Source: Octopus sinensis (lineage: Eukaryota). From it: a stretch of DNA of 64,000 nucleotides. How positions within the stretch are numbered: position 1 is the stretch's first letter; every line of letters begins with the position of its first letter. Where the stretch lies: positions 173,414,001-173,478,000 of the forward strand of contig NC_042999.1 of assembly GCF_006345805.1 (NCBI RefSeq). Direction: 5' to 3'. Under the pieces are notes generated by a model. That model was not told where the DNA came from. It made no database searches and was given only the letters and a program-made list of their open reading frames with translations. The translations under genes and the position numbers were made by a program. Shown one piece after another: positions 15,381-64,000 of the stretch.

Positions 15381-17127
15381 TAGTACAATACAATGACGTA
15401 CAGCTCGAACAATTGTATAACACTCAATGCCAAAATTAGGTACCAACCCTTCCGGAATTTTCAATCTGTAAATATTTACATACAGGAGGGGCAGAGAGGA
15501 CGGACGATTTTGAAAATCTCAGAAGATCATTAAATATAGCTGCAAATAAATTTTATTGACATCGGTGTGTTCGTATTGCATTAGCATTTGTAAAAAGCAA
15601 GGGTGGAACTCAACATCCATCATGTGGTGCCTGTTTTCATTGATGCACCTCTGAAGGCTTCCAGTCTACTGTCTACAAAATAAATTGCTAGATACACTTA
15701 CCTGGAGTCCACTGTTTAGTAATGAGCTTGTTTATCTTTAGGGTTCCACTGTGTACATGTGTGGACGGACGACGAGTGTGTACAAGCGGCGGTGGGATTT
15801 TAACATGTTTAACATTGGAATAGAAAATTATGTGGTTTGCCTGTCGTGCGTCGAGCACATCTAATCATACGTTATATGTGTGAATAATGTATGTATGTAT
15901 GTATTTATGTATTATGTATGTATATATCTATATATGTATTTATATATGCATGCTGGCATCTTTGAAAGTATAAGCATACCTGTATTAATATTATATAACT
16001 GTAAAGATACATAAATGGCACAAGTGAGTGTGTACGTATGCGTGTATGCGTGAGTGTATATGTGTGCCTGTTTCTGCGTTTGAGTGCGTCTGTATGTGTC
16101 CATCTGTTCTTCTATTTTACCGATACGAAGCATCTGCCTTTTACACTAAATAATCATGAGATTTATAAGCTTGCTTCCCAATCACATGGTTCTGGGTTCA
16201 GTCCTAATGTATGGCACCTTTGGCAGGTGTCTTGTACTATAGCATCGGACCGACCAAAGCCTTGTGTGTAGATTTTGTAGACGGAAATCGAAATAAGCCC
16301 TTCTACCAAATATAGCCCGTGTATATATATATGGTGGACGCGCGTGCGTGTGTATGTTTGGCCCAACAGAATCACCACCGCTTGGCAATCGGGATAATTT
16401 GCATCCCCGTAACAAAGGTGTTCGGCAAAAGGCGCCAATATAAGTACCAGACTTTAAAAAGAAGTACTGGGGCCGACTCATTCAATCGACTGAATATTCA
16501 AGGCGGTGCCCTAGCATGGCCGCGGCCTAATGACAGAAACAAATAAAAGAGAAGATAATACTGGGTTATGGATTTCTGTGGGGTACTTTTAATTTTCAAT
16601 AATTTTTGTATTGCACAGTTGTTAGTAAATATAGGATTCTGGGAACGTTGTGAGCTGCAGTTATTAAGCTGGCTCTTCTGTTTTTTCGCATCGATTCAGA
16701 GGTCACAAACATCATGCATTAGAGGAATAACTCGTGGAAACATGGTGAATTGTGAATAATCTTGAGTACAACTCTGTTATATGCAGACAGATAATGAACT
16801 GTATTCTTAAACACTTCTGCACAATTGGCTGATTATTTCCTTTCCTAGACAAATGTTGGCATATTATACATGTTATATTCAGCCCCCAGTCTTGTATGCA
16901 GTATTGGTAAGAAGCAACTGATGGTGCAACTTACCGCAGATATTTAATTAAATATAAATGGTTTAAGATGTGATATTAAAATGCAGCTGGAAATTCAAGA
17001 CATAAACAGAAATAATTATAGATCATCTTTTGTCAGTTTACCCAGAATACATGTCCTCTTCTGTTGCAATATGTAATGTATAATCAAATATGTTTACACA
17101 AAGACATACAAATATATATATCATATA

Positions 17128-17515
17128 GGCGCAGGAGTGGCTGTGTGGTAAGTAGCTTGCTTACCAACCACATGGTTCTGAGTTCAGTCTCACTGCGTGG
17201 CACCTTGGGCAAGTGTTTTCTACTATGGCCTCGGGCCGACCAAATCCTTGTGAGTAGATTTGGTAGACGGAAACTGAAAGAAGTCCGTCGTATATATGTA
17301 TATATATATGTGTGTGTGTATATGTTTGTGTGTCTGTGCTTGTCCCTCCGACATCGCTTGGCAATCGATGCTGGTGTGTTCACGTCCCCGTAACTTAACG
17401 GTTCGGCAATACGAGACCGATAGAATAAGTACTAGGCTTACAAAGAATAAGTCCTGGGGTCGATTTTTCCCTACTAAAGGCGGTGCTCCAGCATGAATAT
17501 AACAAGTAAAAGAAG
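17128..17515 (+). mobile_element. tRNA-derived SINE family B with an internal (TA)n(TG)n microsatellite; other copies at 16165-16555, 32490-32797, 36231-36650, 38375-38790, 62744-63126, partials at 3300-3450 and 30783-30910(-)
   Basis: GGCGCAGGAGTGGCTGTGTGGTAAG (A-box), GAGTTCAGTCTC/GGTTCAGTCCC (B-box), body GGTAGACGGAAACTGAAAGAAG, tail GGCGGTGCTCCAGCATG. Repeated at least 6 times in the window. Confidence 0.9.
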
Positions 17516-29387: not shown

Positions 29388-29695
29388 GTATTATCATTAT
29401 TATTATTATTATTATGTTTTTTCCTTCTTTCTTCAAATTTTTTCAAATTTTTTTCCGTTTCTCGCCAAGTGTTTTCCATACACCTAGGGCAGAAAAGCTC
29501 ATTGTATGCATTCCAAGATTACACGCAAATTCACAGATAAAATATGTATTTAACAATTAATAAATAAATAAATTCATGAATGGATGTTGTTTTCACAGCG
29601 ATAATGCTCTTCTCAGTACATGAGTTCTAGTTAATACGATTTTTTGCACTTCCTACAGGAAGTGCAAAAAAGTGCAAAAAAATTATCATTATTTT

Positions 29696-30015
29696 TTTTT
29701 CTTTCAAATTTGCTTCCATTTCTTGCCGAGTGTCTTCCCGACTCCTAGGGCAAAGAAACTCATAGTATACATTGGTAGGCCATTAAACCAAACTCAATAG
29801 TTTGTTCATTAAAAAAATTTTTTTTATTTTTAAGTTAAACTAAAATACATGAGCAGCAACAGTTCTCACATCGACAATGCTCTTCTCAATACGTGTGATG
29901 TACCAGTTAAGGCAATCTTTTGCACTTCTTGCAGGGATAGTAAGCCAGGGATCATTCTCATATAATTTTCGGTTCCCTTCTTGATCATTCCTAGTGCTCC
30001 TACGATCACTGGTAT
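29696..30015 (-). mobile_element. 3' end of a Dong/R4-like retrotransposon in a (TAA)n tract; an older copy at ~29420-29680
   Basis: IPVIVGALGMIKKGTENYMRMIPGLLSLQEVQKIALTGTSHVLRRALSM* plus 3' UTR; nearly identical to 46690-47021. Confidence 0.85.
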
Positions 30016-30039
30016 TATTTTTATTATTAATATTATAAT

Positions 30040-30093
<54 letters not shown>

Positions 30094-30211
30094 GATTATG
30101 ATTATATACATATATGTATTTGTTTATTTATTTATTTATGTACTTATGTATGTATATATGTGTGTATGTATGTATGTATGTATGTATGTATGTATGTATG
30201 TATGTATGTAT

Positions 30212-30762: not shown

Positions 30763-33700
30763 TGTATGTATATATGTATGTAGAGACGATGGTCTTACAC
30801 GTAGTTTCCGTCTACCAAGTTCGCACTCGAGGCATTCCTCATCCCTGATCTATAGTAGAAGAGACAGTTACCCGAGGCAAGTGAAACTGGACCTGAAGTT
30901 ACGTGCTTACAAAACGAGATTGTTACAGACAAGGCCATGCCTGTGCCTGTCCACTATCATTGAACAGGTCATGAATGATTTAACGTTTCCATATTTGCAT
31001 GACTCCATTCGTAGAAATTTATCCACCCGTCTAGTACACTGTGAGGTTAGGTGCATAAGCCAGACAGCTGAAGGTTTTAATGAGTGCAATGAATAAGAGT
31101 GTTTTGTTTTGCGATAGTTTATATATCGATACTTAATTACCATACTTTAGGTAATTTAATTAACACAACAGCAAACGACGGGTAATGAATTTCTATGTGA
31201 ATTAGTTAGATGAGGAATAAATCTAATAACAGAAAAAAACCTGAAGAAAGAAATATTCACCATAACCGCCATGAACATCAATAATAAGTTTATCAAACGT
31301 TTCAGCGACATAATTAATGACATGATCAACAACAAGTATAACAACATCATTTTACTTCATCAGTATTAGCAGCAACAGTATTAAATCCATCACGTTGTTA
31401 CCATCACCAGTAGCAACGACACAAACAACAATTACAACTAAGTGAAGCTAAGATACACCCCTTCACACAATGACACCTTGTAGATTGTTATTATTCTCTT
31501 CACTAATTCAGTTACCTATTTAAAATTCACCGTTCTAAACAATACTGACTTAATATGACCAAATACGTAGAAATTAATTAATTTTATAAAGAAAACACAC
31601 ACATATTTCTTCCCTATTTAATTTGATAAATCCATTTGTACGATATCTGTCACCTTAATGAAAAGAAATATTATTTCTATTATTGTAAATTCCATTTAAT
31701 GTTATATTATATTATTTTATTTTGCAGTTTCCAACTTCTCTGTCAAGAAACAAGAGTAATATAGTTTGGAAATTAATCACAATATAAGACTTCTAGTTAC
31801 GTGTTTTATCTTTACCTCTATTACGTGGAATGGCTTCCAAAATAGTTATCTGCAAATTACTTCCTCGAATCATACTGATTTGTATATATTTATTTTTATT
31901 GTTAAACTTTGCCTTTGCAGTGTTATCTTTTTCTTACCTCTAATGCTACTAATATGATTGCTGCAACTAATATTTATGTTGCTTCTACTTAAACTAATAT
32001 TATTACTCTTAGAAATACTTTGACTTCTACAGCATGTATTCTCATAGCTTACAGCGTTGATGACGTTGACATATCAGTATGACAGTAAGTATTTATGTGC
32101 GTGTCTGTGTGTGTGTGTTTGTGTATGTGTGTGAGTGAGTGTGTGTATGTGTGTCTGTGTATGTGTCTGTGTTTGTGTGTATTAACTATAAACCATGCAT
32201 ATACATGTATGTATGTATGTATGTATATGTTTACACACACACACACACACGCGCGCACGCAGACATACAGACAAATAGACACACACACGCGCACACACAA
32301 ACACACACACATATACACACGCACACACACACCCACACACAGATATATATATATATTCAAATATGCAATAGAAGCATCTATAGATTAAGGTCTTTATCTA
32401 TAACAATATACTTAACGTATGTGTGTCATTGAAATGCCAGAAGCTGGAATGTTTCCTTCGGGAGCTGGTTTAAACGAAATCGCCCAGGAATCGACCAAGA
32501 AAACAAAGGATTTTGTAGAAGGAAACTGAAAGAATCCCGTCGTATATATGTATATATGTATATATGTGTGTGTGTATGTATGTATGTGTGTCTGTGTTTG
32601 CCCCCCCCCCGCCCAACATCGCTTGACAACCGATGCTGGTGTGTTTACGCCCCCGTAAATTAGAGGTTCGGCAAAAGAGACCGATGTAGTAAGTACTAGG
32701 CTTAGAAAGAATAAGTCCTGGGGTCGATTTGCTCGACTAAAGGCGGTGCTCCCACATGGCCAAAGTCAAATGACTGAAACAAGTAAAAGAGTAAAAGTGA
32801 CTAAATGCTGCAGCCTCTGGCTTTTCGACGACGCACGTTAAGAATATGGCATAGATAAATCTGTGAGTATGTGTGTTTATACGAAACACCTTTTCAGAAT
32901 ATTGCAAATATCCTGAAATATTCTCCCGATATAGCATATGTCTGTGTGGCCTCAGTAAACAACCAGGAAGAAATGCGCTAGTGCCAGAAAGACGATGCCA
33001 TAAAATTGTTGAGCCTCCTCTTATTTTATTCTATTATCAATAATTCCCACTTTCCTAAACAGCGCATCCAGTGTGCAAACATCTGTTGTAGGATTCTATG
33101 AAATATGCAGCGAACAATTCTGGACTGTTATTCGTAGGTTAGACCGTATAGGGCTCATATTGTACCCTAAGAACAACCATTTCTTCTTCCCTGGATTCAT
33201 TCAAGACGTGATCATTAATAAAATCAATCATCCAACAAGAAATGTTAGCAAAATACCCTGACATAGGCTCAACCGTCTAAAGAAAATAGAATATATAGAT
33301 TAGCGAAATTATTGCTAATCTAGGTAAATATGTAGTCATGACAGTCCCTGGTGAAGCAACATTGATGATAAGTCTGTTCAAACATTTATAAACTGAAGTT
33401 GATCAACAATGATTACTACCTGCCCTATTGATTCCATGTGTTAACAGACTTAAACCGCTCTTCAACATAATATAATTATTGTCTAACTCGACCTTTCGGG
33501 TCCCTGACGCGTAACAGCTGTAGCCAACTACAAATGCTACTAAACCATTCTCACAATATATATTGGTTTCAAATTTTGGTTCAAGGGCAGAAATTTCGGG
33601 AATGGTAAGTCGATTACATCAACCTCAGTACTCAAATTATTTTATCGACTCCGAAACGATGAAAGGCAAAGTGAACCTAGATGGAATTTGGGCTCAAACA

Positions 33701-36163: not shown

Positions 36164-36209
<46 letters not shown>

Positions 36210-36804
36210 TATATATAATATATATATATAGGCGCAGGGGGCTATGTGGTAAGAAGCTTCCTTCCAACTGCATATTTCAAGCTTCAGTCCCACTGCGTGG
36301 ACTTTTTGACAAGTGTTCTCGTGACGCCCAAAGTCTTGTGTGTGAATTTGGTAGAAAAACTGAAAGACGCCTTTGTATATTAATGTGTATGCGTGCAAAT
36401 ATGTGTGTCTGCATATGTGTGTATCAGTGTGTGTGTGTGTGTGTGTCTATGTGTCTGTGATTGTCCCACACTACCGCTTGATAACAGCTGTTTACGACCC
36501 AGTAGCTAGCAGTTCGACAAAAGAGATGAATAGAATAAGTAACAGGGTTAAAATATATATATATACTGGGTTCGATTCATTTCACTATAAATTACCCAAT
36601 ACTCTCTCATACACAGCATGGCCGCAGTTAAATAACTGAAAGAACTAAAATATAAAATGAGACATTTATATGTATGTGTGTATACATTGATACATACGTG
36701 CATGTATATATTATACACACACGCTCACAAACACACAAATGCACATACACACACACACATGTATACAAATGCACACACACACACATATATATATGTGTAT
36801 ATGC

Positions 36805-36868
<64 letters not shown>

Positions 36869-36939
36869 ATATATATATATACACACACACACAAACACGC
36901 ATCAACATATTTATATACATATATATGTATTATATATAT

Positions 36940-36982
<43 letters not shown>

Positions 36983-37659
36983 TATATATGTTATAATAAA
37001 GCGTTAATTGCAACAAGTTGCTCAAAACCACATACCGAAAATATTAGAAATGGCAGCCAAATAGATTACCATTTCTCCTACTAGTAAAAAAGTATCCATA
37101 AACAATCAGAATTTGCAACCCGTATATGGAAAAGAGAAAGAAAATAACGAAATCACAGTCTGTTTGGATTAATTGTAGACGAAATTCCGTTTCTGGATTA
37201 GAACCAATGGTTCATTTCCTTGTCAATATAATATTTCCTATAAATCTAGAAATGCTAGGGGGAAAACGACTTACCCACCATACCGGCTCGATCAGGCGAC
37301 ACCGAACGATATGATGGTCTACCAGCATCCCTACATTTATATACAGACAGGCGAAATCGTATCTCCCTCCAAAATTACCACGTGAGTTGCAAAAACGTTA
37401 TCAACGAAACGAAGTTTCGCAGATTTATTGTATGGGAGTAATAGCGCACAATATACAAAAATGGTGAAATATAATTAATTTAATAAAATTAGTGGTAATT
37501 TTGTAGGGAGATACGATTTCGCCTGTCTGTATATAAATGTAGGGATGCTGGTAGACCATCATATCGTTCGGTGTCGCCTTCTCCCCCTCTTCTCCCCCTC
37601 CCCCTCTCTTCTCACTACACCACACGACTTTACACATCACATCATATATGATGTGCCAT

Positions 37660-38012
37660 ACTAATACATACACCAACTAATACATACTAATACGTACTAA
37701 TACATACTAATACATACTAATACATACTAATACATACACCACCCTATACATACACACGTCCAGACCCCTCATACGCACTTATACTCTCTCATACACACAC
37801 ACACACACACTTATACATACTAATACGTACTAATACATACTAATACATACTAATACATACACCAACCCCATACATACGCCTGTCCAGACCTATCCCACGC
37901 ACTAATACTCTCTCATACACACACACACACACACCCTTATACATACTAATACATACTAATACATACACCAACCCTATACATACACACGTCCAGACCCCTC
38001 CTACGCACTAAT
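37660..38012. repeat. Nested minisatellite: three ~120-140 bp units containing (TACATACTAA)n and (CA)n
   Basis: CATACACCA(A/C)CC..TACATAC..GTCCAGACC...ACGCACT recurs three times. Confidence 0.85.
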
Positions 38013-38181
38013 AGGTGGTCATTCAACCCTATTATCAACCCTATTATCTCCCCTTATTTCGCTCTCGCGTCTCATGTTTGATCTTTGACTTCTGGCCGAA
38101 ATCAGATCGCCATGTTGATTCGTTAGTTACTGCACGCATTTTTTTTCTCTCCTTCTTTCTGTTTTTTTTTCTCTCTGTGTA

Positions 38182-38219
38182 TCTTTCTGTTGAAGAGCGT
38201 AGGCTCGAAACGTTAAAGA
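38182..38219 (+). ncRNA. Minimal type I hammerhead-like motif (A6 to U variant)
   Basis: Stem I TCTTT/AAAGA; core CTGTTGA-A; stem II GAGC-GTAG-GCTC; GAAA; palindromic stem III A-CG-T; cleavage triplet GUU. Confidence 0.55.
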
Positions 38220-38317
38220 CTTGTTTTATTTATATTTCCTGAGCGCCATACTAATACAATTGTTTGTTTGTTTTCCACCTGCCTTCGTCTTTTGTCTATT
38301 TTCATAAAGCTTCCCGT

Positions 38318-38376
<59 letters not shown>

Positions 38377-38809
38377 CGCAGGAGTGGCTGTTTGGTAAGT
38401 AGCTTGCTAACCAACCACATGGTTCCGGGTTCAGTCCCACTGCGTGGCATCTGGGCAAGTGTCTTCTGCTATAGCCCCGGGCCGACCAATGCCTTGTGAG
38501 TGGATTTGGTAGACGGAAACTGAAAGAAACCTGTCGTATATATGTATATATATATATGTATGTGTGTGTGTGTTTGTGTGTGTTTGTCCCCCTAGCATTG
38601 CTTGACAACCGATGCTGGTGTGTTTACGTCCCCGTCACTTAGCGGTTCGGCAAAAGACACCGATAGAATAAGTACTGGGCTTACAAAGAATAAGTCCCGG
38701 GGTCGATTTGCTCGACTAAAGGCGGTGCTCCAGCATGGCCGCAGTCAACTGACTGAAACAAGTAAAAAGAGTAAAAAGAGAAAGAAAGAGTATATAGATA
38801 GATAGATAA

Positions 38810-38864
<55 letters not shown>

Positions 38865-38911
38865 CTCACTCACAAACACATATCCACTTATTTATATACA
38901 TACTTGCATAA

Positions 38912-38947
<36 letters not shown>

Positions 38948-38986
38948 ATATATATATATATTATATTATATATATATAATATATAT

Positions 38987-39925
38987 ATATAGTAAAGAAA
39001 AAATAAGATGGCTAGCAGCAGGCTCTTCGCATCATACCGAGGGATTAGAAATGGCAATCAAAGACCGTTTTTCCATTTTCTATAAGTGGAGATTCCAAAA
39101 ACGAAGGCCCTTACGGCTCACATACACAAAACCGGAGTGGCAAATATACGAAATCAGTCACTTACCGTTAATAGCGAACACGTGTTTCTGGATCGCAAAC
39201 ATAGAAAAAATTAGTTTGAATTCCGTCATCGGCGCTATATTCGATAGCTTTACCAAATGCCACTAGCCCTCACTTCTGACCCAGCGACATCAGATAGTGG
39301 GGGGAAGAGCGCAGATGTTAAAACTAAGTAGCGACTGGGAACGTAAATTTTCCCTCCAAAATTCTGCCATGCGCGCTTTCTGGGTAATCGTAATGGAATG
39401 AGGAATCCACATGGTAATGCAATAAAAATGGTAAATAATTTTCCTGTGGTTTTTCGTGTAACCAACAATTATTTACCGGTAAATTTCGGTATGTAAATAC
39501 GACAAATTAATTGTCAGGACCTTTGTAAGGTTCAGTATATAGTAAAGAAAAAATAAGATGGCTAGCAGCAGGCTGTTTCACCTCATACCGAAGGAATTAG
39601 AAATGGCAGTCAAAGACCGTTTTTCCATTTTCTATAAGTGGAGATTCCAAAAACGAAGGCTCTTACGGGTGAGCCGTAAGGGCCTTCGTTTTTGGAATCT
39701 CCACTTATAGAAAATGGAAAAACGGTCTTTGACTGCCATTTCTAATTCCTTCGGTATGAGGTGAAACAGCCTGCTGCTAGCCATCTTATTTTTTCTTTAC
39801 TATATACTGAACCTTACAAAGGTCCTGACAATTAATTTGTCGTATTTACATACCGAAATTTACCGGTAAATAATTGTTGGTTACACGAAAAACCACAGGA
39901 AAATTATTTACCATTTTTATTGCAT
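38987..39925. mobile_element. Penelope-like non-autonomous element with partial tandem and inverted pseudo-LTR arrangement
   Basis: Direct repeat 38987-39116 / 39537-39668 (550-bp period); 252-bp inverted repeat 39417-39668 / 39674-39925 with a 5-nt loop and 1 mismatch; flanked by TA and GATA repeats. Confidence 0.8.
39171..39238 (-). ncRNA. Type I hammerhead ribozyme motif
   Basis: Minus strand: ATAGCG CCGATGA CGGA..CAAAC..GTTTG..TCCA GAAA CACGTG T T CGCTAT. It has a 6-bp stem I, palindromic stem III ACACGTGT and a GUU site. Deviations are U4 to C and a C10.1/A11.1 mismatch. Confidence 0.65.
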
Positions 39926-39935
39926 ATAGATATAT

Positions 39936-40026
<91 letters not shown>

Positions 40027-42738
40027 TAGATATAGATATATAGATATATAGATATATACTCACTCACAAACACATATCCACTTATATATATACATACTTG
40101 CATAAATACATAGATATAGCAACTGAAATGAAATATTCTTTCCGCCAGTTCACGCAACGCTATTTTTGTAATACATACAAAGATAAGTACATACACTAAT
40201 GCATACATGTATACATACACGCACGCACACACAAACGCACACACGCCGCGCACGCACTTAATACAGACATACGTATATTAATACTTACATACATACTGAT
40301 ACACATACATACATACATACATATATACTTACATACATACATAATACATATAGACGTACAAACAGACATATTTGTGGATACATGTATTATGAGTGAGAGA
40401 TGAAGATTTGTGCTAGAGAGATACATTGGTGAACTCAAGGATTAGAGTCTCTTGGATATTTTAGCGTAACTTGTCTCGTAATCTTAAGAAATAGAGTTCC
40501 ATCTGTCAACATTCTGACTACAAATCTGAATTAATCTATCGCGTTTAACTTCAAATCATCTGGGTGCGGCGAAATACATGTCAAAACTATAGTGTTTTCT
40601 GTTTGATTGACTACATTCCTCACTATATTTTGTATCAAAGGAAGCTATCAGTTTTATCGACCTTGCAAAGCATAGGAAATAGTAACATCAACAGTTGACA
40701 TTTGAAATCTCACAACCGGGTGATGCTTTAAAGTATTTAGCCTAACTGCTCTTTCAGCCAGGAACTATGGCGCTATTTTTATCGAATATTTGAAATGTAA
40801 TCCACTATCCGTTGATATTAATTCAAATTTCAGCATAGATATTATATTTCATTTTCGATTCACGTTGCTTTAATAGTTTATTACCCTTTCGAACTCACAA
40901 TACAAATATTCTTTATTTTATATTTTATTCTTGGAATCCACTTTTAATTAACTTTATTAATTAAATATTACGGTGTTATAAAATACATTTTTATTCTTGT
41001 TATTCATTTTTCATTTTTTACTGGTCCTGTTCTTTTCCTTTATTTCATGATGTAATTTGCTTCATTGATAATTTGCATTATTGATTAGCTCTATTGTAAG
41101 GTCTTTCAATTTTCGAAATTTCAAATACTGTTTGCTTTTTTCACCTTTGTGTTTGCATTTTTCTTGCAAAGGTTACTTTTATTGTATAAGAGTTGGCAGC
41201 AACTGAGTGCAAAACTGTGAACTGCTAAATCTAGTGCAGTTTCAGATCTAGGTTTAGTTCATTTTATGTTACACGTTCTCCTAGTATTCCTGGATGAGAC
41301 AGGAGAACAAGTAATTACCATTTTGCCCACTTCAAACACATCGTCATTGTTGCTAAACAAAAATGCAAAATGTAAAGTAAAAGGAACATTTAAAGTTTAC
41401 TTTTTTCAACGGCCGAATGTTATATTTCTTACAGTGGAGAAAAAAGAATTAAAGAAAATCCGTCTGAGCTGATTTCAAATTATTTGATTATTTCAAGCAC
41501 AATTTTATCAATATAATTTATTTTTTTATCTTTATTTTACACTTTATATTTATTTTAATTTTATTTTGTTTATTTATTTGTTTTTTTTAGGAAAGGCTTG
41601 AGCAGAACAACTTTCTCAATGCTTAAAATATCCGGGTTTAAGGTCCAAATAATGAAATTCATTTTTTGTTTCAGCTATATATACCGTGCAAATTTTATAT
41701 TTTACTAATTTGTCATGCCTCTAGCTGGTATCATTCGATGTAACGAAAATACAATCTAGTCAAGCCCAAATATATGCGTTGATACATATACAAAGCTCAT
41801 TAGTATAACACAGTTAAACAATACGCGTGCTATATGTCAAGTGATTACAATCTCCATATTATTCCACCATTCATACTTAAAGATATTTATGGGAATTGTA
41901 GTTGCTTGACTTGATAATGTGTTGAAATAGGAAACTGATCTTCGGTTAGGTTGACGTAAAGTGTCATCTAAAATTCTTTTGTTCATGACAGGAAAATGGG
42001 TGATTTGGTTTATCTAACTATAAACACTGCATCTCATTGATATTTTGTTCTATGCAGCTTAGTAGCCATGGATTATTATTAATTTGTATGCTTGTAGCAT
42101 TGTTTCTTTCCAAGAACAAGCATTAAACATGTTAGAAATATTTGCACTTATGTCTTAGACTGACTAATTCTATGATAATAATGAGTTTATTAGAAATATT
42201 CTTTCACCAATCGAACTATTAGTAATCATATTCTAATTACATCTAAGGTTAATAAATAAATAAATAAATAAATAACAGGCATGTACATGATTAGATTCTA
42301 TCAACTAGATGACTTCCCAGTTAGCGTGTGATCTCTCTTTGATAGTGAAAGGAGAGCGAATGGAGAAATAAAGTGTGCATGCGTGCGTATGCATGTGTGT
42401 GTGTACGTGTGTGTGCGTGCGTGTGTGTGCGTGCTTGTGTGTGTATGTGTGTGCGTGTGAAAGAGTGAGAGAGAGTAAAGATGTGTGCCTGTTGGAGTCT
42501 ATGTGCGGACATGTTTTAGCGTGTCCGGAAAACACGGAAAACAGGAAATATGGCAGGGAAAGACAGTAATGAAAGAGCAAGTCAGTTTAATTGGAACTGT
42601 CACATTATAATAATCCACTTTCTTATTCTCATTTAAACCATTCTGAAGAATATAAATTGGTTACATTCGCGTAGCACCATGCGTCACATTTATGTATCAG
42701 TATTAAAATATAATATACAGGAATACATTTTTTTTTTT

Positions 42739-43062
42739 AAAAGACTCCGCCGGTTACGACGACGAGGGTCCCAGCTGATACGATCAACGGAACAGCTTGC
42801 TCGTGAAATTAACGTGCAAATGGCTGAGCATTCCACAGACACGTGTACCCTTAACGTAGTTCTCGGGGATAATCAGCGTGACACAGAGAGTGACAAGGCT
42901 GACCCTTTGAAATACAAGTACAACTCATTTTTGCCAGCTGAGTGCACTGGAGCAACATGAAATAAAGTGTCTTGCTCAAGGACACAACGCGTCGCCGGGA
43001 ATCGAACTCACAACCTTACGATCATGAGCCGAATGCCCTAACCACTAAGCCACGCGCCCTCA
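42739..43062 (-). mobile_element. Young tRNA-derived SINE family C with 12-bp TSD
   Basis: A-box TGGCTTAGTGG and B-box GAGTTCGATTCC on the minus strand; TSD AGGAATACATTT at 42719-42730 and 43063-43074; A-rich tail. Confidence 0.92.
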
Positions 43063-44746: not shown

Positions 44747-44877
44747 ATATATATCGATATATCCATACTGCATGCCCAATGAACATAATTAAAAGCTGAA
44801 GATTAATAAGTTTAGTAAAAATATTCTTTCTTTTATTCTTTTGTTCTCATATTATTCTGATCTGTAATATTCAGTCT

Positions 44878-45203
44878 TAAAAGACTCCGCCGGTTACGAC
44901 GACGAGGGTCCCAGCTGATACGATCAACGGAACAGCTTGCTCGTGAAATTAACGTGCAAATGGCTGAGCATTCCACAGACACGTGTACCCTTAACGTAGT
45001 TCTCGGGGAAAATCAGCGTGACACAGAGAGTGACAAGGCTGACCCTTTGAAATACAAGTACAACTCATTTTTGCCAGCTGAGTGGACTGGAGCAACGTGA
45101 AATAAAGTGTCTTGCTCAAGGACACAACGCGTCGCCGGGAATCGAACTCACAACCTTACGATCATGAGCCGAATGCCCTAACCACTAAGCCACGCGCCCT
45201 CAC
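44878..45203 (-). mobile_element. Second young SINE family C copy with its own 12-bp TSD
   Basis: 3 substitutions against the 42739 copy over ~320 bp; TSD AATATTCAGTCT at 44866-44877 and 45204-45215. Confidence 0.92.
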
Positions 45204-46638: not shown

Positions 46639-46680
<42 letters not shown>

Positions 46681-46689
46681 TTTTTTTTC

Positions 46690-47021
46690 TTCTTTCAAAT
46701 TTTCTTCCATTTCTTGCCGAGTGTCTTCCCGACTCCTAGGGCAAAGAAACTCATAGTGTATATTGGTAGGCCATTAAACCAAACTCAGTAGTTCGTTCAT
46801 TTTTTTTTTTTTTTTTAAGTTAAATTAAAATACATGAGCAGCAACACTTCTCACATCGACAATGCTCTTCTCAATACGTGTGATGTACTACTTAAGACAA
46901 TCTTTTGCACTTCTTGCAGGGATGGTAAGCTAGGGATCATTCTCATATAATTTTCGGTTCCCTTCTTGATCATTCCTAGTGCTCCTACGATCACTGGTAT
47001 TGTAACCGCCTTGAGATGCCA
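46690..47021 (-). mobile_element. 3' end of a Dong/R4-like retrotransposon in (TAA)n
   Basis: WHLKAVTIPVIVGALGMIKKGTENYMRMIPSLPSLQEVQKIVLSSTSHVLRRALSM* plus 3' UTR, with TAT repeats on both sides. Confidence 0.85.
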
Positions 47022-47096
47022 CATTATTATTATTATTATTATTATTATATTATTATTATTATTATTATTATATTATTATTATTAATATTATTATTA

Positions 47097-47137
<41 letters not shown>

Positions 47138-53009: not shown

Positions 53010-54465
53010 GCTAGTGTTAACCGTGGATGTGCGCTACGCGACAGAGGGGGGGCAATTAAACACGCAACACAGGTAATAAGATCGGAGGAGTGGGTACTTT
53101 TGCCTTGTACTACGGCAAAGGTGTGGCCAGAGTGCGAGTAGGCCAACTACCCCCAGAACTAGAAGAAGCATGGCTGATGACAGCCATAATGTTCAATATG
53201 AAGGATGGGGCCAAGATACTGAAGGCCACAAGAACTAATAAACTTAAATTACTGGGGATATGGGATCAAACTCGCTATCCAGGCAACAGCAGAGGATTTG
53301 AATGGGATTGCTGAAGAGAGAGTACTACCAGACGCCTCGAGATTAAGAATGATGGTAGAGGGCATGCCGCCTGTAATTTTAAATGTGGAGAGAAGGGCCA
53401 CATAAAGGCATGATGCACCCAGAGAAAGCAAGAAGCAGAGCAGGTGGAGAGACAAGAGAGCATGGACCAGGTAGAACAGGTCGAGACGAAGGAAAAAGAA
53501 ACAGCGGATGATTTTACAGTGGTAAAAAAAAAGAGCGGAGGGGTGGGTTCTCCGCCAGAGAAACAGAAAAAGAAGAGAGAAGATATGAGAAAAGAAACTG
53601 TGAAGGAGGTCAACAGAAAGGAAGATAAAAGGGTGACAGAAAAAAGAAAGAGGAGTTACAAGTAAAGATACCAGTTGTTCCGATGGAAAAGGATTCGGAT
53701 ATTCAATTGACCGAAGAGGAGATGGAGAGACTATTTAGAGTGGAGGAGGAAAATAGAGAACAAAGAGTTCAAACTAAGAGAAAGAAAATACAAGGAGGAA
53801 ATGGGGTTTGGTATTATGTGACATACCCAAAGAATGTAGAAACGGAGAAGAAGATAGTCAAGATTAATCAAATATTAAGAGTGAAAGTACCATCATACAT
53901 ATATGCAGAGGATATGAAGGCGATATTGACCGAAAAGGAAAATTGCAAGAAACTGGAAGAAATGCGTGGAGATAGTATTGAACCACCAGGAGTAAGGGTG
54001 GAATTCAAAGAATTGCCACCAGTAGTGGACTTAATAGAAATTGAACCATTGATGAAGTACTATTAAAAAGAAAATAAGTATGTTAAATTGACAGGAAAAA
54101 ACTAAAGAAAAACGAAAATGGAAAAAGATGAAAATGGAGGAAAAAACAAAGAAAGAGTAAAGTGTTTTATGCTATGTTTTAAAAATATTGAAAAATAGAA
54201 CAATTGTAGAGAATGTATATAACGGTTCAATTACTTGCAATGGTAGGTAACACGATCATTAATTGTTATGAAAATACATAAAAATGGGCTGTAAAAAAAT
54301 ATTAATGGTACTGCATGTGATGAGGGACGCATGCAGCCATTCATAACCTCATTGTTATATAATCATCTCATTCATATTCGTTTTATGTTTTGTCCCCTCT
54401 GTGGTGTCGTGTCTGTTCTTGTCTGTCCCCCTCTATTCTGGGCCCTTGTGGCTAATAAGGAAACA
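53010..54465 (+). mobile_element. ORF1-only non-autonomous retroelement (frameshifted gag/ORF1-like protein with zinc knuckle, no RT)
   Basis: YYGKGVARVRVGQLPPELEEAWL; knuckle remnant (C)FKCGEKGHIKA*C (~53375-53415); E/K-rich linker; ORF 53683-54066; tail GCCCTTGTGGCTAATAAGGAAAC. Confidence 0.7.
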
Positions 54466-57432: not shown

Positions 57433-58330
57433 TGGAATTACGGCTTCTCAGAGGACGAGAGAAATTACAGACAAACCGCTACTCGTTTTATTATGTTTAG
57501 TTTAACCCGCTCTTCTAGTGTGAAGGTTCACATATTTGCAATAAGGGTTGATTGAGTAAGCATAATCAGTACTATGATTTTTTTAACATGGGTCACAAAT
57601 ATACCTCTCACTATTTCACAGATAATTTACTGATACTGGTAAAAGAGCACAATCAATTGCAGAAAATTTGAACACAAAACAGAAGGGGACTTCGCTACAT
57701 GCTTGCAAGGTATCTTGTCTCCCACTCAACTGAATCCGAGAACTATTGCTGTATATCTTTAAAATATTGAGGTCTATTGAAGCAGCTGTATGTATCTCGC
57801 TACAGGAAATAACATTTACATGAAGTTAATGTATATTTCTATTATAACGAGTAACTAGAAACGCAGAACATAAAACTATCATCAACATAGAAATACCATT
57901 CTGATACACAATACTTTAACATAAAATGGAAAGGAAAAGAGAAGCGAAAAATAAGTATTGTGAGGAAATGATTTCTGAACAATAAAATACCATTCAAATA
58001 CCTTTCATCCTTCTGTGATACATACATATATATATATATAATTTCAACAATTGAGGGTAAAATTAATTAATTAATTAATCAATTTCACCAAGTATTCAGT
58101 ATGCAAAGGGACCATTTAAGGCGAATTCAAATTATTACATTATATAAAAGGGCTTAGTAAAATAAATTACTTTGCCGCATACTGAACTCGTTAGAAATAG
58201 CAGCTAAAAAAACCTTTTTATAAAACTATTTCTAACACTTAAAGAAAACCTCTCTCATATAGTGTTTGCTCAATTCAACTCAAGGAAGTATGGGGGTAGA
58301 GACATTAAAAAATCAAATGCAAAGGTTATT

Positions 58331-58383
58331 TGAGTACGTACGTTTCAAGATTAGTCAAAATCGACCCTTCTCTCATCAGCTCA
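58331..58383 (-). ncRNA. Type I hammerhead ribozyme (inverted copy)
   Basis: Exact reverse complement of 58607-58659. Confidence 0.8.
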
Positions 58384-58606
58384 GAATGCCCTTCATCTCT
58401 CTCTACTTAATGTCTCGGATTTTACCGAAAAAAACATAGTGTTTGCTGATTTTAACCCACGCTGGTGGAAAGGGGAGAGCAGAAATTCTTCGCTTGCATA
58501 TTGAGTTTGTTGGCACTGTTAGTTTGGAACAGATCTTCAGAAGCGATAACAAGCCGAAAGGGTATGCTCCCATTTTCAGTGTTTTCAGATTCAAACAAGG
58601 GCATTC

Positions 58607-58659
58607 TGAGCTGATGAGAGAAGGGTCGATTTTGACTAATCTTGAAACGTACGTACTCA
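58607..58659 (+). ncRNA. Type I hammerhead ribozyme
   Basis: Stem I TGAG/CTCA; core CTGATGA (58611-58617); stem II GAGA-AG-GGTCG-ATTT-TGACT-AA-TCTT; GAAA (58644-58647); palindromic stem III ACGTACGT; cleavage after GUA (58655). Confidence 0.8.
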
Positions 58660-58875
58660 AATAACCTTTGCATTTGATTTTTTAATGTCTCTACCCCCAT
58701 ACTTCCTTGAGTTGAATTGAGCAAACACTATATGAGAGAGGTTTTCTTTAAGTGTTAGAAATAGTTTTATAAAAAGGTTTTTTTAGCTGCTATTTCTAAC
58801 GAGTTCAGTATGCGGCAAAGTAATTTATTTTACTAAGCCCTTTTATATAATATATATATATATATATATAAATAC

Positions 58876-61860: not shown

Positions 61861-63124
61861 CCCTCTCTGATCATAGTGACAAATCAGGAAATATCTCCAT
61901 ATTACTAGAATATGCATGTATGATATGACAGTGACGAATCTGGAGAATAATATCTGGTTACAGTATGAACTGATAAAGGTAGTCCAACGAATTAAGGTAA
62001 CAGGCCTATGAGCTGAATCCAATGTAGGAATCTAAAGTATAGAGCGGTAAAGAATGTTTCCCACAATGTTCAGTGAAGATCAGTGATAATTTGCTTTGTA
62101 TTAACCTCCTCATCAGAGATCTGTATTTATTGTTTCGCTCTGCCCAGTAGTTATTATTGGCACGTAGACTTATTACATTTTGGAATGCATACAAAAATGA
62201 TTTATCGTTAATAGCTCTTCAACTAACATGAGGAAGCGATGTTTAAGTAATTCGATAGCTTTCATCACAAAAGTAAACGAAAAGTAATCATGGATGTAGT
62301 CTGTTTGAGGTATAACTTTACTCGATGATACGGAACAAAATTTAGTTTTTTTCGGGTTCAGTTCAAAATCTTAAATCTATGTTTATATCTCTTATTCATA
62401 GCGCATAAAACTTTAAGAAAATAGTAACAAAACCAATGTAGACTGGATCATTACTCGTAATTCTTGATCTGTTCTTCTACAATTTATTTATTTCCTTGAA
62501 AAATGTAGGATTTCTGGTGACATGAAATGCAAATTGTTAGTTGGAAGGTTTTGATATTCTGCCTTCAATTACCGGTTTAAGGGAGAGACATGATTATAAA
62601 AAGTGACCGACACTTTGATAAGTTTACTAAGATGACTGTCTGAACATATATTTGATAATAGTAATGATTACATACCAACTAATTCATAAGTTATGTGAGC
62701 AAGATAAAGTTTTATATATATATATATACACACACACACAATAGCGCAGGAGTGGCTGTGTAGTAAGTAGCTTGCTTATCAGCGACATGGTTCCGGGTTC
62801 AGTCCCACTGCGTGGCACCCAGGACAAGTGTCTGTAGCCTCAGGCCGACCAATGCCTTGTGAGTGGATCTGGTAGACGGAAACTGAAAGAAGGACGTCGT
62901 AAATATGTGTGTGTACATGTGTGTGTATGTGTTTGTGTGCGTGTATGTTTGTGTGCCTGTGTCTGTCCCCCAACATCGCTTGACAACCGATGCTGGTGTG
63001 TTTACGTCCCCTGTAACAGCGGTTCGACAAAACAAGCCAATAGAATAAATACTACGCTTACAAAAAATAAGTCCTGGTGTCGATTTGTTCGAATAAAGGC
63101 GGTGCTCCAGCATGACTGAAACAA

Positions 63125-63211
<87 letters not shown>

Positions 63212-64000
63212 ATATATCTTATGGTCATGGATTAAATAACTGTCACAGCGATTTACAATCGTAAATAGGTTTCAGATATTCATGATGAAATTTTAATCTT
63301 TGATGCACAACTAAAGCAATGATTTTCGCAGTAATGGTTTTACGCTGAAACAACGCCAGTTTTATATAGGAGAATGGGATTGATATTAATTGGTCTACTA
63401 GTATTGTAACTGTTTTATCGATTCCCGTGGACTAATAAATAACTGGGTAAATTACTCTAATTCAGTTTCTATTTTGTTTGTATATTTTGTTTTGTGGGTG
63501 TTTTTAATAAAGAAAATAAACATATTGTACTTTGTATCGTTTTAATCGCCCATTCTGAGACAGAAAAATGGTTTGACACTTTAAAGACTTGAACTCAGAG
63601 ACGAGGCAGATTAGACTATAATTTTATAGAATGTTGTTAATCAGTCTCTTACCTGACCTCTCATGCACTACTCTGCTGATCCAAAACGAAGAGCAATACT
63701 GTTTGGAAATTGCGTTTTATTTTTATCTCTCTTCCTAATGTGTTTCATATCTCGTAAATATGTTTCGCTTTCTTATCTGACATGATTATTGCGTGCTTCT
63801 TAATTATTATCTATTCAATTAGTACATGATCTTAGCACATATTACATTTTACTAAGACAATGAAAATAAACCGCTCACATTCAAATATACCAATAGCAAC
63901 CAATAATCAGCATTTTGACATTTTCCTATCGTACTGTTAATGTTTTTCTGAGTGATAAAACTTTTATCGCAGTGTATGTTCTCTTTTGTATGTCTTCTTC

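Follow-up and report, generated by a model that had tools for sequence, protein, structure and literature searches.

The window, the whole 64,000-nucleotide stretch of Octopus sinensis contig NC_042999.1 that was analysed, was AT-rich (27-38% GC per 2 kb), with dense TA, GATA and CA microsatellites. It contained a non-coding repeat with a palindromic, hammerhead-bearing structure, termed element A (38987-39925), which was flanked by a duplicated segment, and two relatives of this element, termed B and C. The features were located as follows, in window positions:

36991..37579, no strand: relative B, with the same 3' motif as A and a TA end; inverted arms 37294-37381 and 37492-37579 (87/88), spacer 110
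38790..38919, plus strand: left copy of the flank duplication, (GATA)n and a 57-nt segment (56/57 identical to 40056-40112); candidate long target-site duplication
38908..38991, no strand: (TA)n microsatellite of 43.5 AT copies, adjoining the long arm at its 3' end
38987..39536, minus strand: complete non-coding unit of 550 nt with the minus strand as sense, its 3' end reading TATATA into the microsatellite
39171..39238, minus strand: hammerhead-shaped motif of type I; its core has U4C, 10.1/11.1 is C·A, stem III is palindromic and the triplet is GUU; cut predicted at 190 nt from the 3' end
39417..39668, minus strand: left arm of the palindrome, within the 682-nt long arm; 251/252 match to 39674-39925
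39537..39668, minus strand: 5'-truncated second unit (the final 132 nt of the unit, in partial tandem); 8/132 differences to 38987-39116
39669..39925, plus strand (sense): inverted copy of 257 nt, whose start in the unit precedes that of the direct arm by 5 nt; it crosses the unit junction and ends 120 nt into the next unit at TTGCAT
39926..40113, plus strand: right-hand flank copy, with unique sequence after it
58136..58854, no strand: relative C, with head-to-head arms 58136-58393 and 58597-58854 (257/258), spacer 203, and (TA)n on the right side only

Several other repeats were observed in the window. At 37580-38317, CTCCCC and (CATACTAATA)n repeats were followed by a minimal hammerhead-like motif (38178-38222, plus strand) with a CUGUUGA core; it was about 100 nt before a (TA)n end and had no BLAST similarity to A, B or C. 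A SINE-like dispersed repeat that started after (TA)n was present in at least six copies in the window; the copy at 38354-38790 was directly upstream of the flank duplication, and further copies were located at 16168-16548, 17106-17495, 32508-32796, 36203-36559 and 62710-63216. Two 326-bp copies of a young short interspersed repeat (42737-43062 and 44877-45202) were 2.1 kb apart and had 99% identity and differing flanks. A repeat of about 430 bp (29682-30099 and 46673-47100, 88.5%) occurred in association with arrays of (TAT)n. At 53249-54066, open frames of 126-161 codons were non-repetitive, and one of them (53629-54066, plus strand) was lysine- and glutamate-rich; they are possibly the remnant of a mobile-element ORF.

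The two arms of A (39417-39668 and 39674-39925) were identical at 251 of 252 bases, with the sole mismatch at 39661, and were separated by a 5-nt loop that reads GTGAG on the plus strand. This agreed with a first-pass annotation of the DNA, which had described a near-perfect 252-bp palindrome with a 5-nt loop. Its count of about 1.2 tandem units of 550 bp also held, as the long arm was 682 nt or 1.24 units in length (a 550-nt unit plus a 132-nt partial unit). The direct copies (38987-39116 and 39537-39668) had a spacing of 550-552 nt and 8 differences in 132 columns. When the hammerhead strand was taken as sense, A consisted of the inverted 257-nt copy, the 132-nt 5'-truncated unit, the full 550-nt unit and (TA)n, in that order. 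The inverted copy began 137 nt before the unit end and the direct copy 132 nt before it, showing that the loop bases are the extra template bases of the inverted copy. The native continuation from these loop bases, as in the first copy, was found in six contigs from three runs. Both outer ends of A were on TA-like motifs of the unit, and both arms had cDNA polarity pointing inward from the flanks. The anatomy of A and the polarity of its arms are established.

The 550-nt unit had 40% GC, and its longest stop-free stretch in the sense direction was 72 codons. It folded better than 100 of 100 shuffles as a linear molecule (z -3.4); when it was folded as a circle, 1 of 100 shuffles was as good (z -2.8). 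An ORF with RT and GIY-YIG was absent from element A, and an autonomous Penelope-like element was rejected for this reason. A MITE or other DNA transposon was also rejected, because the outer ends at 38987 and 39925 correspond to different unit positions, the inverted repeat is internal and there are no outer TIRs.

At position 39661, T was found only in the direct arm of A, and the family contigs had the C form. The first-pass annotation had quoted the letters at the loop correctly and had read the inverted arm as a mosaic produced by switching between the direct copies. However, the inverted arm was the same as the adjacent copy except at 39661 and in the five extra template bases; the single private T and the five native bases suffice, and a template switch between direct copies was rejected. 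The two arms had in common five letters at which the sequencing runs mostly differed, for example G at 39456, where the other letter made up 74405 of a depth of 74526 in run X1. Such near-private letters indicate one template for both arms, or later homogenisation. The direct copies were more diverged than the arms (8/132 vs 1/252, Fisher p=0.001), and seven of their eight differences were clustered inside 35 nt (P=0.006).

The palindrome of A exists in the assembly. Its centre was bridged by none of the 32 listed contigs (of 44 at 97% likeness in four runs), and depth was zero at 39661-39668 in all four runs examined for it; these runs may come from other individuals and contigs drop rare variants, and the zero-depth centre neither supports nor refutes the junction.

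A minus-strand hammerhead with a 6-bp stem I and a palindromic stem III had been annotated at 39171-39238, and as a motif it was confirmed. Stem I had 6 bp, stem II had 3 bp and stem III lay in the palindrome ACACGUGU; the strands were in type I order, and when the 682-nt sense strand was shuffled 300 times, no shuffle reached the same score. The stems had been described accurately, but the CCGAUGA core (U4C), the C·A at 10.1/11.1 and the GUU triplet had been overlooked. With U4C and C·A, the motif departed from the strict consensus given in PMC3088659 (C3 U4 G5 A6 N7 G8 A9 core plus the 10.1-11.1 pair). Rfam returned no match at gathering scores anywhere in the window, and at E up to 10 in 36900-40200 it returned generic hairpin matches only, with no hammerhead family. 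The catalytic fold of the 68-mer was -1.9 kcal/mol, compared with -10.1 for the minimum-energy fold. One complete hammerhead was found in the A copy, and there were no permuted or split-core hammerheads in A, B or a sequence labelled D. According to the same source, a hammerhead with U4C has far lower activity in vitro and still sustains a viroid (PMC3088659). Self-cleavage of A RNA is a predicted activity, based on the sequence.

The duplicated flank, the relatives B and C and the Penelope-like footprint had all been overlooked in the earlier annotation. The two flank copies aligned over 146 columns (38779-38924 with 39974-40118) at 91%, and the non-microsatellite part was identical at 56 of 57 positions; their GATA arrays were unequal (75 vs 133 nt). 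The left copy was followed by (TA)n and element A, and the right copy by unique DNA. A short target-site duplication at A could be hidden in TA, and the 130-190-bp flank duplication was present. Target-site duplication over 130-190 bp, together with addition of TA at the first nick, is one possible origin of the two copies; another is an older local duplication in which element A landed later.

Relative B contained a hammerhead-shaped motif with a UUGACAA core of the U3-A8 type and a near-palindromic 12-nt stem III, about 187 nt from its end as counted by hand from the sequence. U3-A8 is a natural swap in hammerheads according to section 8 of PMC3088659, and the description of this core as decayed was dropped. 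The short arm of B ended without TA and continued into other repeats. In relative C, each arm contained a consensus type I hammerhead (CUGAUGA...GAAAC GUAC GUA) at a distance of 199 nt from the end, and both arms ended at one site; one SCG-order hammerhead alternative in the right copy used spacer sequence that was missing from the left arm. Relative C is the better candidate for a cleavage test.

Elements A, B and C had in common the 3' motif TGCYATTTCTAA...TCRGTATG, the TA end, a hammerhead-shaped motif 187-199 nt from the end (190 in A) and a head-to-head inverted 5'-truncated copy next to the 5' end. The local score of A vs B was above all of 200 shuffles (z 8.3), as was that of B vs C (z 6.9); the direct comparison of A with C was weak (z 2.1), with 9 of 200 shuffles as good. 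No significant overall similarity was found between the upstream halves of the three elements (z -1.5 to 0.6), and a profile built from A, B and C matched only their own copies in the 64-kb window. Stem III was self-complementary or nearly so in all three, with differing letters, as expected if the ribozyme works as a dimer. Dimer action has been described for axolotl hammerhead motifs (PMC7229834). The first-pass annotation had called the insertion probably recent, on the ground that such palindromes are normally unstable, and A is probably fairly young, given the 251/252 arms and the 56/57 flank duplication. However, near-identical arms were found in three of three elements in the window, indicating that such palindromes are not rare in this genome.

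Part of the stretch was contained in 20 of the 24 listed sequencing runs, from five organisms and 11 studies. Five runs from two organisms were examined. On the unit stretch 39100-39715 (616 nt) at 85% likeness, the three genome-sized runs (X1-X3) had 578, 590 and 441 contigs; the share that continued into unlike sequence was 0, 0 and 0.01, respectively, and the listed contigs crossed the unit junction. Hundreds of contigs with almost no exit into unlike sequence and with the junction crossed showed that the unit is abundant and closed on itself. High copy number is established in this sense; the contig depth on the unit is not a copy number. Nineteen contigs of one run presumed to be RNA matched the unit, which is no proof of expression.

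Many family contigs had ACATATGT instead of ACACGTGT in stem III (81% of depth in X2 and about 60% in X3), which was again palindromic. No variant was found at the U4C and C·A positions in the listed variants of the family contigs, and this absence from the variant table suggests that both are family traits. The layout also recurred, with other inversion points in the family (opposite-strand joints 39199/39585 and 39356/39656, one contig each), another head-to-head junction with a 4-nt filler (one contig) and another copy with TA at the same unit end as A (one contig). Loose contig ends at 39237 in runs X1-X3 represented subfamilies with UUGAUAA or UUGACGA cores beside the CCGAUGA of A, and the listed loose contig ends resembled diverged subfamilies. 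A pattern scan of metagenome contigs gave 0 matches. Two loci from a pattern scan of viral contigs showed no similarity by BLAST to any of A, B, C and D and were taken as chance.

Taken together, A is probably one insertion of a retrozyme-type non-autonomous repeat, formed by a Penelope-like enzyme from two target-primed cDNAs that were copied from one template region and joined head-to-head. The inward cDNA polarity of both arms is expected of target priming that occurs twice, at staggered nicks, and from this layout we infer the enzyme and the two priming events. On this reading the 550-nt repeat, which is non-coding and has a type I hammerhead by prediction, would be mobilised in trans by a Penelope-like (GIY-YIG + RT) enzyme. 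That enzyme would nick each strand of a target rich in TA and start two cDNAs from one and the same region of the RNA. The first cDNA would start at the TATATA end of the unit and extend for 682 nt; the second would start 120 nt further downstream in the RNA and extend for 257 nt. Both would stop within 5 nt of each other before head-to-head joining, and two cDNAs that stop no more than 5 nt apart and are joined in this way give a nearly loop-less palindrome. Nicks 130-190 nt apart would leave the duplicated flank, which would then be a target-site duplication. Against this explanation, no autonomous partner was found, and the extension of A was 120 nt, an offset observed in this copy, compared with the published 30-40-nt tail. 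The arms of C ended at the same site and the short arm of B had no TA. A target-site duplication of 130-190 bp would be unusual, and the duplication may predate the insertion. The hammerhead of A also departs from the strict consensus, and its catalytic fold is not the one of minimum energy. A more specific version can be put forward only tentatively, as possible but doubtful. It holds that A is a full record of two-ended priming, with TA nicks 130-190 bp apart and two co-terminating cDNAs from one template, and that its subfamily as a whole has retained a hammerhead with U4C, an N·A mismatch and a palindromic stem III that covaries; this hammerhead would work only as a dimer or when assisted by the enzyme.

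The first-pass annotation had proposed a retrozyme-like RNA repeat bearing a hammerhead that was reverse-transcribed, and this part was upheld; its circular monomer template was not. In that scenario, a 550-nt RNA that has cleaved itself and become circular serves as template for cDNA synthesis round the circle, and the cDNA folds back to prime its own second strand, leaving a palindrome. The unit was indeed closed on itself in the family and self-paired (linear z -3.4, circular z -2.8), and the long arm passed through an uncut hammerhead site. However, a circle read 1.24 times is expected to give identical direct copies, and these differed at 8/132 positions vs 1/252 between the arms (p=0.001), although the clustered differences (P=0.006) could be a later conversion patch or derive from a second RNA molecule. 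Fold-back of the long cDNA, the simple hairpin proposed earlier, predicts CTCAC in the plus-strand loop, where GTGAG was found. Fold-back of a short cDNA would leave the native CTCAC that the minus-strand loop contains, but the 430 nt beyond the arm would then still require a second cDNA. With only one hammerhead in the A copy, that one with an atypical core, and with the arms of B and C 110 and 203 nt apart, which hairpin fold-back does not explain, we consider this origin unlikely.

An origin at the DNA level after insertion, in which the inverted arm and the flank duplication were made by template switching of a replication fork or by repair of a break in an older copy, or in which conversion later homogenised the arms, appears quite unlikely. 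It would account for the near-private letters common to the arms of A, for arms 99% alike in all three window elements and for a flank duplication that is atypically long for Penelope-like elements. The fragility of TA and GATA arrays also favours it. However, the inverted arms were pure element sequence without flank in three of three elements, those of A and C ended at TA-like element motifs, and the right flank copy was followed by unique DNA and not by the element again, so a third switch would be required; the layout has moreover been published as part of the Penelope cycle (PMC8557442 and PMC3846280). The unit might instead be a mere pseudo-LTR stump of an autonomous Penelope-like element and not a self-contained non-coding repeat, since the architecture is that of 5'-truncated Penelope insertions and hammerheads are located in pLTRs. 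We regard this as very unlikely, because the sequence upstream of the full 550 nt was the unit's own 3' end and not the end of an ORF, almost no contig of the three genome-sized runs continued into unlike sequence, and there was no sense frame of more than 72 codons. An assembly artefact, from a fold-back read or from two haplotypes joined at the microsatellite, is the most improbable account. Arms 99.6% alike, a long flank duplication with unequal GATA arrays and a centre unseen in contigs of four runs are what an artefact could produce, but the inverted arm contained five native bases and the family-type C that were missing from the direct arm, and is therefore no mirror image of the adjacent read. 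In addition, the forward orientation resumed after 257 nt, and differing inversion junctions of the family were found in three public runs.

Element A was compared with known systems. The architecture of A is already published for Penelope-like elements. Insertions of these elements contain a partial tandem next to which lies a 5'-truncated copy in inverted orientation, they carry a tail on one side and they favour (TA)n (PMC8557442), and their head-to-head palindromes have been interpreted as self-priming (PMC3846280). Compared with the EN+ Penelope-like insertions in these two sources, A had the same 5'-truncated upstream copy in partial tandem, adjacent head-to-head inverted 5'-truncated copy, palindrome at the inverted junction, extension at one end, (TA)n target and hammerhead in the repeat. 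It differed in having no RT-EN ORF, an extension of 120 nt vs 30-40 nt, 252-bp arms just 5 nt apart and a flank duplication of 130-190 bp vs the 8-10 bp of the target-site duplications reported there. Purified Penelope protein (PAc, Poseidon of Anolis) cleaved and extended both strands at AT-rich DNA with internal RNA starts (PMC11167929). A agreed with this in vitro mechanism in its AT-rich target and, on the proposed model, would also agree in the cleavage and extension of both strands and in two internal starts, which would explain the unequal ends. However, the PAc starts were not homologous to the cut DNA and were 30-40 nt apart, whereas both ends of A were on TA-like unit motifs 120 nt apart.

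Element A also resembled animal non-LTR retrozymes (PMC7229834, 10.64898/2026.07.22.740005), being a non-coding, low-GC (<50%), multi-copy tandem unit without an LTR, with a type I hammerhead (predicted in A), a self-paired fold and a proposed dependence on Penelope-like elements. Animal retrozymes have been argued to be non-autonomous Penelope derivatives, and cleavage was observed in 1 of 9 dimers tested (10.64898/2026.07.22.740005). By contrast, A had a unit of 550 nt vs the reported 150-450, one hammerhead in the copy and an atypical core. Head-to-head arms, which A has, are not described in the available parts of these two retrozyme sources. An 'active' retrozyme was defined by Li et al. 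as two consecutive units with complete hammerheads, and their pipeline had a period limit of 1000 bp, inside which the 550-nt unit of A falls. A search of the open-access literature returned no description of cephalopod retrozymes with head-to-head arms. In L1 twin priming, primers from both target strands give an inversion within the target-site duplication. The two segments barely overlap in that case, whereas the second copy in A duplicates 252 nt of the first.

A single copy adds little, because the architecture is already published. The way in which tandem and inverted Penelope-like insertions arise is described as an open question in PMC8557442 and PMC11167929. Short non-coding copies such as A record both priming points, both stops and the nick spacing, and a unit of 550 nt lends itself to in vitro tests. 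What A adds to the published layout is an extension that is one-sided and unusually long, a hammerhead core of variant sequence and a flank duplication that may be a very long target-site duplication.
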